This document shows positions 39,740 to 45,715 of a stretch of DNA of 64,000 bases, one piece after another. The position numbers were made by a program, and so were the translations under genes. Each line of letters opens with the position of its first letter. Positions within the stretch are counted from its first letter, which is position 1. This DNA comes from Dictyostelium discoideum (taxonomy: Eukaryota), in contig CM000151.3 in assembly GCA_000004695.1 (NCBI GenBank), positions 4,896,001 to 4,960,000 on the forward strand. Direction: 5' to 3'. Under the pieces are notes generated by a model, which was not told where the DNA came from, did no database searches, and saw only the letters and a list, made by a program, of their open reading frames with translations.

Positions 39740-39821
39740 TTATTTAAATGTGATTAATTCTACTTCAAAGACAAGTCTATAAAAAAATATATAAATGATT
39801 AATTCTACTTCAAAGACAGTC

Positions 39822-39860
<39 letters not shown>

Positions 39861-40447
39861 GAATGATTAAAATAGGGAATACTAACGTTGCATTTGGTGG
39901 AATAACACCACCAGCACCTCTAGCACCATATCCAAAATCTGGGCTAATGGTTAATTTTGAGGTTTCACCAACTTTCATTTTAGCAACACCTTCATCCCAA
40001 CCTTTGATGACTTGACTATAAAGTTTTAGAGAGGGAAAAAAAAAAAATTAGAAAATTATGATTGGGATAGAGTTTAAAAAAAAAAAAAAATTATAGAATT
40101 TGCATACCCAGCCCCAAGTTTAAAATTAAATGGTTGGCCTCTCTTTCTTGATGAATCAAAAACGGTACCATTAGTTAAAGTACCTGCATGCTTTATTAAT
40201 AATTATAGAATAATATATATATATTGTGAATTAGTTTTTTTTTTTTTTTATTTGTTTATTTGATAATAAAAAAAAAAAAAACTTACATGTACAGTTACAT
40301 TTGAACCAACTGGTGGAATATTACCTTTACCTTCTTTAATAATTGTGATTTCAACACCCTGATTTTTTTAAAAAAAAAAAAAATATATATATATTAGATT
40401 TTAATTCATTGATCAAAACGTTTTGTTGTTCAAACTCAACTCACCAT
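39740..40447 (-). CDS. FKBP12-type peptidyl-prolyl cis-trans isomerase, 107 aa; complement(join(40445..40447,40287..40358,40108..40190,39887..40015,39740..39776))
   Basis: The first exon is the 3-nt ATG alone (atg|gtgagt). Exon 2 is [24 protein letters not shown] (donor gtaagt). Exon 3 is [28 protein letters not shown]. Exon 4 is [43 protein letters not shown] (donor ac|gttagt). Exon 5 is [11 protein letters not shown]. It matches yeast Fpr1 and human FKBP12 (..HYTGTLENGQKFDSS..GVGQVIKGWD..LTIP..YAYG.RG..G.IPPN.TLVFDVELL). The exon 2/3 junction gives VHHAGT instead of the canonical VHYTG, so it is uncertain by one codon. Confidence 0.7.
39796..39825 (-). repeat. Tandem duplicate of the FKBP terminal exon plus acceptor (tgattaattctacttcaaagaca(a)gtctat), lying in the last intron. 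It is frameshifted by a 1-nt deletion.
   Basis: 39744..39775 and 39796..39825 are direct repeats. The proximal copy behind acceptor aatag| would give ..NATLSLK*. Confidence 0.6.
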
Positions 40448-40527
40448 TGTTTTATTTATCAAGTTTGAATTATTTTGTTATGGAAAAATAAAAAAAAAAA
40501 AAGTCAAAAAAAAAAAAAAAAAAAAGT

Positions 40528-40565
<38 letters not shown>

Positions 40566-40736
40566 AAAATTAAAAAAAATTAAAAAAAACTTTTTTTTTT
40601 TTTGGTAACAACATCAACCTGTGGCTGCAATAAATAATACCTCAAATTGAAATAAAATAATTGTATCTTCCACAACTTTTAAAAGAATTCCAATTTATAA
40701 ATCAAAAGGTGTTCAAGTTTTAATTAATGTTTTACC

Positions 40737-41696
40737 TCATCTGAGAATTTTTTTCAAAAAACCCAGGATATTTATTTTATTTTTTTTTATAACCCCACTC
40801 ATTTTTTTTTTTTTTTTTTTTTTTGATCTCCAGATGATTTCTTTTGTTTGATTTATTGTTTTTATTATTATTATTATCTTTGTCATCATATTCATATCAT
40901 CACTATTATCAGTTTCACTATGATTGGTTTCATTATCAGTTTCACTATCATAGGTTTCATTATCATTTTCATTATTTGAACAAACGTTTGGGTTTGAATT
41001 TGTAGAGGATATTTGAGAAAAAGGTAATAGATCATATACACGATGGTTAGAGACATTTGAAAATATTGATAATATTTTAACATTGTATTTGGTATAAGAT
41101 CTTCTATTATTGATCCTATCGGGAGAATGTGTCAATCTATGGTATCTAAATGGTAAATTTTCATCAACACCATGTAATGCCAATGGAATGTTATAATTTC
41201 CACATTTGAATTGGTTATTCGCACAAATTTCAATATATTCATCAACGTTTAATGTTTGAACCCCTAATTTTGGAACATGTGGAGGCGACTTTTGATTTAT
41301 TGATTGGATATGATATTTCATATTAGATTTGATATAATTCCACATGTTTTTAATTGATTTTAAAAATTTTACATATAGGTTTTGGAAGAAATGATATAAC
41401 TCATAGGTAGAGCAATAACCAAACATAAAATAATGATTATCTAATAATTATTTGATGTTATTATTGTTATTTGATTTAATTAAATCAATTAATTCAATAA
41501 ATAGTGAATGATTGGAATTCTCAATTTGATATAGATCAGGAACTGAATCTTCCACAATATTAAAATTTGACAAACCTTGATATAATGGTAATTTGTGTGT
41601 ATTGATTTGGGGTGCTAGTTTCTTATCACCATTACTTGCCAACTTGTTGTTTAACCTAATAATTAAACGTCCATACCCATATTTATATGAGATCAA
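40737..41696 (-). CDS. Hypothetical protein(s): two adjacent minus-strand ORFs (41448..41696, 40737..41426) in different frames; possibly one gene with an unresolved junction
   Basis: Long ORFs with non-random composition (..CGNYNIPLALHGVDENLPFRYHRLTHSPDRINNRRSYTKYNV.., acidic NETYDSETDNET repeats). No homology was recognised. Confidence 0.3.
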
Positions 41697-42978
41697 TTCG
41701 ACTTTGTATAATACATGAAGGAAGCCTTTATGTATTATATGTATTAATGGCTCATTAATAAATCAGTGGGAGTGCATGTATCATCATGATCTTTTAAAAG
41801 TTGAGTGATTATTAAAATATAAATATTAAATGTATTTGGTACCAAATTCTTTAAATTGGAATTGAGGATTTACATTTTGACAATCATTTGTTTGAATTTT
41901 ATAAAATTGAATACCATTGATTAAAATACTTGATATTTTTGAAAATTGGATTCCTCCATAAGAATTATTAAATGAAAATCTTCAACCTTTGTATCAAATA
42001 TATAGTATTAAAATTATAAATAAATAATTTTGTAAAAAAAAAAAAAAAAAAAAAATTTTGGTATTGATTACAATAATAATTTGTTTAAAAAAAAAAGATT
42101 TATTTTATTGTTTTTACATACAGTTCAAGTAAATCTGTTTTAACAAGTATTCTTGATACTTCCTTTTTTTTACACAAACATACATACATGCTCTTTTATT
42201 TTTAAAATTATCTTGAAAATGTAACTGCATACCATTTGTTCCAATTAGAATATAATTTAAAAATTCGAAAAATATGTTCAGATTTTCTATCTTTTTTAAC
42301 TGCGTAATTTGCAATATCCAGTTTTTTAGTTGTATTTATTTCACCATAAATACCACGACTTTTTATCTTATTGAATGAAGTAAAATAGATGAATAACCAA
42401 TTTTTTCTTTATTTTTGTCATTGAGAGAAATCTTGATATTTTTTATTGCTGTTAGGATTCCACCATTAGAACATTGTTTACTTGAATTATAATTAAAGCT
42501 TTTTCATATAGATTTCTAATAGTATCGTAATATTAATCGCTACGTTTTTCTTTTGTAGCAAGTACACGTTCTCTTATTCCATCATCTGAAATTAATTTAA
42601 AAATCTGTTTGAACCTACACCATTATTATTTAAACAAATTTTCAATTGATTTAATAGTTTCCAAAAATAAATAAAAAATAAATAAAAATTTTAATATAAT
42701 TTAATTCTTTTAAAAAATAATATATTATATCATTGTGTACTTAAAATTCTAAAATATTATTAAAAAAAAAATTCATTATTATTTTTATTATTAATTTCAT
42801 AACTTATTAAATTTTGATTGTATAATTGTTCATTTTTTCTTTTAATTTCATTATTTTCTTCTATTGATTGGTTTTTGGATCAATTTCTTAAATAAATAAT
42901 ATTTGATGATAATATTTTTAGTTAAATTATCATTTTTATATTAAACGATGTGTTATTAAACACTAATTAATATTGTAT

Positions 42979-43014
<36 letters not shown>

Positions 43015-43439
43015 AAAAAAAAAAAAGAAAAAAAAAAAAAAAATTAATAAACACTTTTTTCCCTTTCTCATATATAAAAAAAAAAGAAAAAAAAAAAAAA
43101 AAAAACCTTTCAATCACATAGGGATACATTATTAAATTTTTTTTTAAATTCCTTTTTTTTAATTTTTAATTTTTTTTTATTATCACAAATATTTTCATCT
43201 TTTTCACCATTTGTTTTTTGGCAGGATAATTTTTTATATTTTTTTACTAATTGGGGTAGTTAAACAACCAATTGTTTTTTTTTTTTTTTTTTTTTGAAAT
43301 AATAAATAGAAGTTATGACATTATTTAATTAATTTTTAATAATCCATAACAAAATTAAATAACTATCTGCTGGTCTTTTTTGTATTTTTTTTCAACTTCG
43401 AATTAGGCTATAATGAATGGTAAAAGAAAACTGTCTACT

Positions 43440-43720
43440 GATCTTTTTTGTATTTTTTCAACTTTGAAAATTTAGGTTGCATTTGGTGGAATGACACCAC
43501 CAGCACCTCTAGCACCATTACCATAATCTGGGCTAATGGTTAATTTTCAGGTTTCACCATTTTCATTTTAGCAACACCTTCATCCCAACCTTTGATGATT
43601 TGACTAAATTTTAGAAAAAAAAAAAAAAAAAAATTAGAAAATTATGGGAAAAAAAAAAAAAAAAAGATTAAAGAATTTGCATACCAGCTCCAAGTTTAAA
43701 ATTACTAATTTGGGTTAAAA
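43440..43720 (-). pseudogene. Degenerate fragment of the FKBP gene (exon 4 and the 3' part of exon 3), about 90% identical with indels
   Basis: gttgcatttggtggaatgacaccaccagcacctctagcaccattaccataatctgggctaatggttaattttcaggtttcaccattttcattttagcaacaccttcatcccaacctttgatga aligns with 39888..40010. agaatttgcataccagctccaagtttaaaatta aligns with 40095..40130. Frameshifting indels are present. Confidence 0.55.
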
Positions 43721-43728
43721 TAAAACAA

Positions 43729-43762
<34 letters not shown>

Positions 43763-43913
43763 ATTATAATTATAATATCATAAATGGAAATTGATATTAT
43801 TTTTAAAAATCCATAATAAAATTAAAAAACATTCAAAATTGGTTTTTTTGAAATTTAAAAATAGGAAAAAAAAAATAAAAAAAATTAAAAAAAAAAAAAG
43901 TTTTAAATTTTTT

Positions 43914-43962
<49 letters not shown>

Positions 43963-43978
43963 CAATTGGAAAAAGATA

Positions 43979-44010
<32 letters not shown>

Positions 44011-44203
44011 ATTTTTTTATTTTTTAACGAAATAATTTATATGCGCGAAATTCGTTGATTAAAAAGAAATTATATTTAAAAATATTAAAAAAAAAAAAAA
44101 GAGTATTAATAATAGCACGCACATTCATTATTATTTATAAATTATAGTTCTTTTTTTTTTTTTAAAAAAAATATATAAAAAATAAAAATATAAAAATAAA
44201 AAA

Positions 44204-45715
44204 ATGGTATACATAACACCAAAGGGTAAAATAAATTTACCCAATTATAAAGGTGGTACAACCATTGATAAATCTATAATGTATCAATATGTAATCAGTC
44301 CTTCTTGTAATATTATAGTTGAATATTTTCCAAAAAATTTAGCGTAAAGTTTTTTTTATATTCTATTAAAAGAAAAATAAAAATAAAAATAAAAATACTA
44401 ATTCTCTTTTTAAAAAAAAATTAAAATAAAAATAAAAATAAAAATAAAAACCACACACACACTCTAAAAATAAAAATTTATAGACCAAATTTAGTATGTA
44501 TTAATTGATTTACCTTTATAATAAATAAATAAATAAACTAATATATATATATATATATATATTTTTTTTTTTTTTAAAAAATTTAGATTACAGCAATTGG
44601 ATTATTTTGTAATTTTTTAGGATTGTTTTCAGTATTTTATTTTATTGGATTTAATGAGAGTATTGGAGGTAATAAACCAACATTAGAGGATGATAGTTCA
44701 GTTAGATGGGTTTATTTATTTGCAGGAATGATGATATTCATTTATATGATGATGGACAATATCGATGGTAAACAAGCAAGAAGAACAAAAACATCATCCC
44801 CATTGGGTGAATTATTCGACCACGGATGCGACTCGTTATGCACTGGACTGCTTCCATTGATAGTCGGTATTTCGATGGGTATTCGTAGCTGGGAGATCCT
44901 AATTGCATTTATGGCAGCCACAATACCATTCTACTTAGCCCACTGGGAGGAATACTTCACCCACCATCTTGTATTGGGCGCATTGAATGGCCCAACCGAG
45001 GCAGAGTGTATGGCAATATTGTTCTGTTTCCTCACTGGTATATTTGGTCAATGGATTTGGTTCATAAAGATTGATTTCAGTGTACTCACATTCAACCATA
45101 TCCAATACACAGGTCAATTGAATGAAATGATCTTTTTCGCTATGGCAATAATCTCATTCGTTACAGCATTTCAAAATATTTTAACATCAACTAAAAAAGC
45201 AATAGATATGAAAATTAGTTTATTCACTGCTTATTCACAACCAATTCCATTCATTATCTTTTTTTGCTCTGAATTTATTTGGTTAAAATTATCACCTTCT
45301 TTATTTTTAACTTATCCAATAATTCATATATTAAGTTTAACTTTTATTTTCTCATATGTAGTTGTAAGTTCAAAAATTATTTACTTTTTTTAAATTTACT
45401 ATACAAATATTAACATAATTTTTAAATATATATATATAGTGTCGTTGTATTGTTCAAAGAATTTGTCAAGAAGATTTTAGATTATTTTATAAACCATTAA
45501 TATTTTTAATTGGTTGTGTTTTAAATACAGCAGCTAAAGTTTATTTGAATATTGAAATTTTGGATGAACAAATTTCAGTATTATTATTATTTGCTATTAG
45601 TTTAGGTTTCATGTTCCATTTTACATATAGTATCATTCAAGAAATGTGTTTAGTTTTAAAAATTAATGCATTTACAATTCCATCATCATCACCACCAATT
45701 AAAAAATTAAATTAA
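44204..45715 (+). CDS. CDP-alcohol phosphotransferase (choline/ethanolamine phosphotransferase, CEPT1/CPT1-like); join(44204..44341 or 44343,44587..45363,45440..45715), about 396 aa
   Basis: The catalytic motif [28 protein letters not shown] matches DG(x)2AR(x)8G(x)3D(x)3D. The N-terminal ..FPKNL|ITAIGLF matches the CEPT1 PNLIT.IG motif. The C-terminal exon (donor gtt|gtaagt, acceptor tatag|tgt) gives ..[34 protein letters not shown].. The first junction needs a non-canonical GC donor to keep frame (see finding). Confidence 0.7.

Follow-up and report, generated by a model that had tools for sequence, protein, structure and literature searches.

A young, frameshifted copy of the terminal-exon start in the last intron of the Dictyostelium discoideum FKBP12 gene

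The last intron of the FKBP12 gene of Dictyostelium discoideum contains, ahead of the acceptor that is annotated as functional, a second acceptor followed by a duplicate of the first part of the terminal exon. This arrangement raises the question of whether the gene has two alternative 3′ ends, one of which would encode a truncated protein, or a single working end and a decaying duplicate. The gene occupies positions 40447-39740 on the minus strand of a 64,000-nucleotide (nt) stretch of contig CM000151.3 (GenBank assembly GCA_000004695.1, positions 4,896,001 to 4,960,000 of the forward strand), which we refer to as the window and whose numbering is used throughout. An original prediction, made from the letters of the sequence, had noticed the second copy and left open whether it was a decaying exon duplication or an alternative 3′ exon. 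Comparative and splice-signal evidence favors the former, with acceptor use being deduced from the signals. In the reading that we consider probable, a young tandem duplication specific to D. discoideum was frameshifted and absorbed as a dead, intronised pseudo-exon, and productive splicing would occur at the distal AG.

The gene and the repeat within intron 4

Joining five coding segments (40447-40445, which is the ATG, 40358-40287, 40190-40108, 40015-39887, and 39776-39740) across four GT-AG introns gives a 107-amino-acid protein. In an exact-sequence look-up this product was identical, letter for letter, to EAL69894.1, XP_643718.1, and UniProt Q554J3 (FKBP1_DICDI, D. discoideum AX4), a record named ‘FK506-binding protein 1’, and the gene model is therefore already part of the reference annotation. 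The protein matches the Pfam family PF00254 (FKBP_C) over profile positions 5-94 of 94 with a score of 125.4 bits (gathering cutoff 21.1, E=1.1e-36). Residues 2-105 align with residues 1-105 of human FKBP12 chains (1a7x_A, E=2.9e-33), the solved structures being collinear with the window protein, and BLASTP with a human FKBP12 sequence gave 54% identity across the full length with 1 gap. Like the FKBP12 proteins human FKBP1A and yeast Fpr1 (PF00254), the protein has a single domain, and its predicted order of strands and helices matches that of human FKBP12. Its N terminus aligns to residue 1 of cytosolic human FKBP12, in agreement with the N-terminal alignment offered in the original prediction. 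The identity with Q554J3, the FKBP_C match, and the end-to-end alignment with human FKBP12 bear out both the proposed identity and the gene model: the locus is fkbp1, and its product is the FKBP12 of D. discoideum, a peptidyl-prolyl isomerase of one domain and, by the published account below, the receptor for rapamycin. An Rfam scan of positions 38500-44500 gave no match, and no meaningful open reading frame was found on the plus strand. One publication describes an fkbp12 knockout made in axenic D. discoideum of AX3 background, and the authors state there that they confirmed that rapamycin acts on mTORC1 via FKBP12 (PMC6637605); on this account of fkbp12-null cells and of rapamycin action via FKBP12, functional FKBP12 is therefore produced.

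Exon 4 (39887..40015) ends with the AC of the Thr96 codon. Intron 4 (39777..39886, 110 nt, phase 2) follows with the donor GTTAGTATT, and its annotated, distal acceptor reads TTTATAG. From its 5′ region (GTTAGTATTCCCTATTTTAATCATTCCCC, from 39886), the intron runs through a first branch-like TTAATCA motif (39864..39870, which follows the donor by 20 nt and precedes the proximal AG by 46 nt) and a homopolymer of 32 T residues (T32; 39826..39857) to the proximal acceptor or pseudo-acceptor AATAG (39821..39825). Use of this site would make a 66-nt intron. Beyond it lies the pseudo-exon ACTGTCTTTGAAGTAGAATTAATCATTTATATA (39788..39820), a frameshifted copy of the terminal-exon start that contains a second TTAATCA (39796..39802), and then a T/A-rich tract with the true acceptor, TTTATATATTTTTTTATAG (39777..39795; the tract and distal acceptor TTTTTTTATAG end at 39777). 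The coding part of terminal exon 5, ACTTGTCTTTGAAGTAGAATTAATCACATTTAAATAA (39740..39776), extends from the third base of Thr96 through the stop codon and encodes the beta-strand of residues 97-106.

The proximal and distal sites are adjacent homologous copies, each with its own acceptor. AATAG/ACTGTCTTTGAAGTAGAATTAATCA (39825-39796; the slash marks the splice boundary), inside intron 4, is a copy, with one nucleotide deleted, of the true TATAG/ACTTGTCTTTGAAGTAGAATTAATCA (39781-39751), so that AATAG/ACTGTC at 39825 corresponds to TATAG/ACTTGTC at 39781. The proximal copy also lacks the ‘CA’ after TTAATCA and carries one substitution. The 21-mer TGTCTTTGAAGTAGAATTAAT is present exactly two times in the window with a spacing of 45 nt, compared with 0.02 expected from 100 shuffles, and repeat finding lists the pair as a direct repeat with 45-nt spacing (family D4). 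Tandem Repeats Finder did not report the 45-nt pair, which consists of only two copies with indels. The same duplicated structure, with the 21-nt repeat identical, occurs in an independent D. discoideum assembly (GCA_054883475.1, locus L001), which is 99.7% identical to the window, with 25 substitutions in 6.7 kb and a T-run of 27 nt (T27) rather than 32 nt. The duplicated acceptor and terminal-exon segment, with its single-nucleotide deletion, is thus present as originally described.

Translation of the two options gives very different C termini. Splicing to the distal AG yields the 107-residue protein with its stop at TAA 39742-39740, and only this copy restores the full FKBP12 C terminus of Q554J3. 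Splicing to the proximal AG would yield a product of 100 amino acids that ends in ...PPNATLSLK at the in-frame stop TAG 39807-39805, as had been predicted. The proximal copy is frameshifted and reaches this stop after four codons (LSLK), and the homologous open frame is not kept in both copies. The shorter product lacks residues 98-107 and with them the LVFEVEL strand, the last beta-strand (residues 97-106) of the AlphaFold model (mean predicted local distance difference test score 83). It also lacks F99, V101, E102, and L103, which are invariant in an alignment of 20 FKBP12 sequences. Were intron 4 to be retained, the frame would stay open through T32 and end at the same TAG as the proximal-acceptor product (39805-39978, minus strand); in L001, with T27, the frame of a retained intron differs from that of the window.

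Two descriptions of the repeat unit fit these observations. In the first, the unit extends from the T-tract before the acceptor to the stop codon, and the upstream copy later lost a T and the CA and gained one substitution. In the second, the unit is bounded by the heptamer TTAATCA, of which there is one copy within the intron (39870-39864) and another among the exon’s Glu-Leu-Ile codons. This second description explains, without extra events, why the pseudo-exon ends with the 9-mer TTAATCATT, as found in the 5′ region of intron 4, and not with the TTAATCACATT of the true exon, a pattern that suggests microhomology-mediated duplication. Under either description, exon sequence would have turned into intron sequence. 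We infer the following course of events. A tandem duplication of ~45 nt in D. discoideum proper would have copied the 3′ end of intron 4 and the first ~25-33 nt of the terminal exon, perhaps mediated by the TTAATCA microhomology. Loss of one T from the upstream copy would then have shifted its frame into the early stop. This copy would now be intronic, and intron 4 would have lengthened from about 66 to 110 nt, with productive splicing at the distal AG and the pseudo-exon’s own TTAATCA, 22 nt upstream, as the likely branch site.

Choice between the two acceptors

To judge which AG is likely to be used, 35 dictyostelid FKBP12 introns were sampled for their length and branch motif. These introns are 77-136 nt long, and a YTAAY motif, most often CTAAT, lies mostly 18-40 nt before the AG, and so ~44 nt or more from the donor. 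The published median intron length in D. discoideum is 104 nt (PMC4683709). By these standards the geometry of the distal AG is normal: the TTAATCA of the pseudo-exon lies 22 nt upstream of it and 88 nt from the donor, with no AG between, and is a candidate branch site. The proximal AG is less well placed: upstream of the T-run, no adenosine is more than 23 nt away from the donor, the T-run itself is pure, and the resulting intron of 66 nt (61 in L001) would be shorter than all 35 sampled introns and far under the published median. The first TTAATCA is the homolog of a CTAATCA in intron 4 of D. citrinum. Our literature searches found no paper that gives a minimum intron length for Dictyostelium, and a search on alternative splicing, retained introns, and RNA-seq in D. 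discoideum turned up no work on splicing in Dictyostelium. Judged from its sequence context, the distal AG is quite probably the dominant site. The proximal AG is probably weak and would serve at most as a minor decoy, leading to a 100-residue product that would not fold.

The strongest competing explanation is a genuine alternative 3′ splice site and terminal exon, in which both acceptors are used appreciably and the proximal one produces a truncated FKBP12 ending in ...ATLSLK. This could take the form of unproductive splicing that lowers FKBP12 dosage, or of an isoform with its own role. Some of the features that lend it weight also count against an intronised relic. The proximal site has an excellent pyrimidine tract in T32, a TTAATCA identical to the distal one 46 nt upstream of its AG, and the advantage of being transcribed first, and the intron that existed before the duplication must have been spliced with essentially these signals. 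To our knowledge, no steric limit on the distance from donor to branch site is established for Dictyostelium, and the 35 sampled introns, all of a single gene family, are not independent. The duplication has been kept in two strains, which are closely related and are the only ones that carry it. The premature stop would fall in the last exon and would presumably leave no downstream junction to trigger decay of the transcript. A protein made in this way would nevertheless be without a core beta-strand and four invariant residues. The exact 100-amino-acid sequence is absent from a collection of 15 billion proteins, in which the cluster of the AX4 protein draws on no Logan or transcriptome source. 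The proximal copy is confined to one lineage and frameshifted rather than conserved, and an intron of 61-66 nt falls outside the sampled range. We therefore regard appreciable use of the proximal AG, and with it a functional alternative 3′ end, as unlikely, and favor the intronised duplication.

A further possibility combines use of the proximal acceptor with a peculiarity of the reference protein. The window differs from L001 at only three positions within the gene. Two of the three are T-to-C differences at 40190 and 40186, in neighboring codons at the start of exon 3 (40108..40190). Both are non-synonymous and change Tyr26-Val27 to His26-Ala27, the exon beginning with CAT GCA in the window and TAT GTA in L001. 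The Q554J3 reference protein likewise has His26-Ala27, and all other dictyostelid FKBP12 sequences examined read VHYVG, with Tyr-Val. Position 26 aligns to human Tyr26 and is Tyr in 90% or more of the 20-sequence FKBP12 alignment, in which the next residue is usually Val or Thr. Tyr26 is a near-invariant pocket residue in FKBP12 structures, and the drug and substrate pocket known from structural work comprises Y26, F36, D37, F46, V55, I56, W59, Y82, and F99. Eight of these nine are present in the window protein and invariant in the alignment; at position 26, the window protein has His. The His26-Ala27 pair could be a laboratory-lineage mutation, a natural polymorphism, or an error in the reference. 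If the proximal acceptor were really used in vivo, part of the FKBP12 pre-mRNA would be diverted to a truncated, non-folding product, and together with Tyr26His/Val27Ala this would give the reference strain a hypomorphic rapamycin receptor. We consider this combination improbable, more so than proximal splicing by itself. If true, a hypomorphic AX4 FKBP12 would affect the interpretation of rapamycin and TORC1 pharmacology in D. discoideum, and use of the proximal site would be a young, lineage-specific case of unproductive splicing, unlike the situation in relatives. Next to the same codons, intron 2 (40191..40286, 96 nt, GTAAGT...ATAAAG) has a second AG 6 nt beyond its acceptor (CATGCAG), the junction reading ATAAAG/CATGCAG/GT (40197-40184, minus strand) in the window and AAAG/TATGTAG/GT in L001. 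Use of this downstream AG would remove residues 26-27 in frame.

Age of intron 4 and history of the locus

A comparison with other strains and species, suggested together with the original prediction, separates the age of the intron from the age of the copy. Intron 4 interrupts the Thr96 codon after its second base, at the same position and in the same phase, in D. citrinum (L009), D. dimigraforme (L008), and D. firmibasis (L004). These species have a near-identical donor, GTTAGTATT(C/T), and a single acceptor each, followed by T-TTA-ATT-TT(C/T)-GAA-GT; the internal exon copy is absent from intron 4 in all three. It is found only in D. discoideum proper, that is, in the window and in L001. Because sister species share the intron without the internal copy, the intron is old in the group and the proximal copy is young.

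The genes of Polysphondylium violaceum and Cavenderia fasciculata are without intron 4. Four lineages labelled D. (cf.) discoideum, L002 (ACTFIW), L011 (ACTFIR), L010 (ACTFIY), and L003 (ACTFIZ), are ~8-12% divergent from AX4 in coding sequence and keep introns 1-3 but are missing intron 4. In a small neighbor-joining tree (324 nt of coding sequence), these four group with AX4 inside D. citrinum, and one or two losses of intron 4 would account for the pattern. Intron loss that is biased to the 3′ end and mediated by reverse transcriptase has been documented for Dictyostelium (PMC4683709), and the four lineages resemble that model in lacking precisely the 3′-most intron. They depart from it in that L002 and L011 keep a relic acceptor and exon-5 copy, cattatag/TTTAATTTCAAGTTGA.., which clean gene conversion by cDNA would not leave behind. 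In both loci (L002, 3500-3800; L011, 4171-4500), a T-rich spacer ending in cattatag precedes the decayed exon-5 copy TTTAATTTCAAGTTGA..TAAATAG ~110 nt downstream of the functional stop, and AACTCATCACATTCAAATAA and a second copy of the 3′ untranslated region (UTR) come next. The relic looks like the footprint of an intron loss that was not clean, such as repair templated by cDNA or a paralog and resolved non-homologously.

Other partial copies of the gene are found nearby. A 5′-truncated FKBP12 pseudogene lies ~3 kb upstream on the same, minus strand (~43720-43361) and comprises the end of exon 3, intron 3, and exon 4. It has in-frame stops (GET-stop-KL and NAT-stop-IF) and no GT donor at the position of intron 4. 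Its terminal segment, starting each time at the Thr96 codon, is present as a tandem pair, with copy 1 at 43478-43431, a spacer ending in cattcattatag, and copy 2 at 43407-43361. The pseudogene is apparently flanked by a direct repeat of neighboring sequence, as one L007 segment matches both 43389-43214 and the sequence immediately above 43739. We considered whether the intron-less genes of L002, L010, and L003 are orthologs of this pseudogene, and did not adopt this idea because a synteny BLAST search shows the window gene to be collinear with the L002 gene through exon 4. L002 has at least four FKBP12-like copies. The cluster in L002/L007 (GCA_054859355.1) and L010 consists of an upstream fragment, the functional gene, an inverted full-length copy (P0017) with the aberrant C terminus ...ATLTAKWYLLFFIK, and a downstream partial copy that keeps exon 4, a shortened intron 4 (GTTAATATTCTCTATTCTAATCATTTTC), and FEVELLKY. 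With the inverted copy P0017 and the partial copies, the history of the locus is complex.

In every member of the D. discoideum complex, the stop codon is directly followed by one or two more copies, in decayed form, of the final 6-7 codons. In L010:3583-3605, such a copy reads GAA CTC ATC ACA TTC AAA TAA, or ELITFK and a stop, and it has counterparts at L002:3573-3620 and L003:3611-3632. By eye, and with no statistics applied, the 3′UTR segment AGAGATGAAGAATTATTCAAATAA of the window (39716..39739) looks like a more decayed version of these post-stop segments, and it resembles an older partial repeat of the last codons. Copies of this kind are absent after the stop in D. citrinum, D. dimigraforme, and D. 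firmibasis. The repeat in the pseudogene, the relics in L002 and L011, and the post-stop copies therefore indicate repeated duplications at the 3′ end of the gene within the complex. Small tandem duplications are recurrent there, and the copy in the window is the instance specific to D. discoideum.

Such recurrence bears on a more radical explanation, that intron 4 was itself born by tandem duplication of the terminal segment (a Rogers-type gain) and that the proximal copy represents the most recent in a series of repeated events. Besides the several other terminal-segment duplications in the family, it would account for the start of the intron, G-TTA-GTA-TTC (39886-39875), which reads Leu-Val-Phe in frame, as does the start of exon 5. 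The in-register identity between the start of intron 4 and exon 5 is 6-9 of 15, where 30 other introns average 4.1 and reach at most 7; the comparison drew on the intron 4 starts of the window, L004, L008, and L009 among others, and its five intron-4 comparisons represent one event. However, GTTAGTAT is close to a generic donor consensus, and the TTAATCA of the intron aligns with the branch-like CTAATCA of D. citrinum rather than clearly with coding sequence. Intron 4 is common to four species and not lineage-specific, so any such origin would be old and its signal weak, and a clear recent copy is confined to the inner 44 nt. In this reading, the 5′ end of intron 4 would be a third decayed copy of the terminal segment, an idea made attractive by the Leu-Val-Phe frame and the TTAATCA motif and downgraded because the same intron and donor are found in three sister species and the identity is only 6-9/15. 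Birth of intron 4 in this manner is very unlikely in our estimation. An assembly artefact is ruled out by the recovery of the duplication in the independent L001 assembly of another strain, and chance similarity in a region of ~17% GC with long homopolymers (the 64-kb window has ~20% GC) is negligible as an explanation, since the repeat core is not low-complexity and is exact over 21 nt where 0.02 occurrences are expected.

The start-codon intron and the significance of the copy

The 5′ end of the gene has an unusual structure of its own. The start codon (40445..40447) supplies the sole coding bases of exon 1 in the model that reproduces Q554J3. It adjoins GTGAGT, the first bases of intron 1 (40359..40444, 86 nt, phase 0, GTGAGT...ATCAG), which has a CTAAT branch-like motif 35 nt before its AG and ends in ...AATCAG at 40359. 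Exon 2 (40287..40358) then starts with GGTGTTGAA (G-V-E). Farther downstream, intron 3 (40016..40107) is 92 nt long, in phase 2, and reads GTATGC...TTATAG; together, the four introns have 9-20% GC. Unspliced read-through from the ATG gives M-V-S-stop, and the next in-frame Met is only at codon 66. The start-codon intron is therefore needed for the full-length protein. The original prediction took the ATG to be a free-standing exon of 3 nt. Its splice junction stands, in that the ATG/GTGAGT model gives the annotated protein, and its sequence statements hold throughout on re-reading of the letters. Exon 1 nevertheless consists of the 5′UTR plus the ATG, and the 3 nt are only its coding part. The exon probably starts just after the T-run near 40485, where the usual layout of Dictyostelium promoters would place it. 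Since exon 1 carries the 5′UTR, there is no problem of micro-exon recognition.

An intron directly after the ATG is present in 11/11 dictyostelid loci examined, from 7 or more named species. Ten of these loci come from two strains of D. discoideum, three ‘D. (cf.) discoideum’ siblings, D. citrinum, D. dimigraforme, D. firmibasis, P. violaceum, and C. fasciculata, and in them a small spliced aligner recovered each annotated ortholog exactly with GT-AG introns. The eleventh, L011 (strain ACTFIR), reads ...aaaacaATG/gtgagt...ccag/GGTGTTGAC. The automated annotation of this last gene, ACTFIR_007031 (P0124, L011:3001-4221), is a 187-amino-acid artefact with a spurious N-terminal extension, because the ATG-only coding part of exon 1 (L011:3641) was missed. 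The number of introns in this gene of 107-109 codons varies from 1 (P. violaceum, L005 2001-2408) through 3-4 and up to 6 (D. firmibasis, L004 2001-2892). The extra introns of D. firmibasis sit after KEG and after DEG, and C. fasciculata has two introns at positions that are not common to the others. The start-codon intron is the sole universal intron position among the compared loci, and the only intron that P. violaceum has. Introns that separate codon 1 from codon 2 have been described as a class of their own, found preferentially in conserved proteins that are short and have no signal peptide, in a survey that covered vertebrates, arthropods, fungi, and plants and did not include Amoebozoa (Nielsen & Wernersson 2006, PMC1626468). 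The FKBP12 intron resembles this class in its phase-0 ATG/GTGAGT...CAG/GGT structure, in having G as the next exon base, and in belonging to a short conserved protein without a signal peptide. Its position is conserved over at least three major dictyostelid groups.

The copy in intron 4 can likewise be set beside known systems. As in tandem exon duplications that give alternative or mutually exclusive exons (PMC9013439, PMC9741552), an acceptor and exon are copied head to tail within one gene. Unlike in those systems, the terminal exon is copied only in part, and the upstream copy is frameshifted, young, and confined to one species; the pseudo-exon also appears to have been absorbed by the intron rather than to provide a substitution isoform. 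Intron gain or extension by tandem genomic duplication, as described for a potato RdRp gene (PMC4974935), is similar in that duplicated splice signals make exon sequence intronic. In contrast to that case, a pre-existing intron would have been lengthened, from about 66 to 110 nt, and no new intron was made.

The gene structure was already annotated, start-codon introns are a known class, and the copy is a familiar kind of tandem duplication, so that the finding is tidy but unsurprising and opens no major question. It has practical consequences for annotation, where an ATG-only coding part of exon 1 and a decoy terminal acceptor are hazards, and the His26-Ala27 of AX4 in the binding pocket may matter to those who use rapamycin in Dictyostelium. 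For the biology of the family, the locus provides a clean, dated example of the duplication of a 3′ splice site and exon start within one species, set against an older single-copy intron that three sister species have kept and against the intron-less alleles of four other lineages. It illustrates how exon sequence can be converted into intron sequence, and how a pseudo-exon may come to supply the branch region for the real acceptor.

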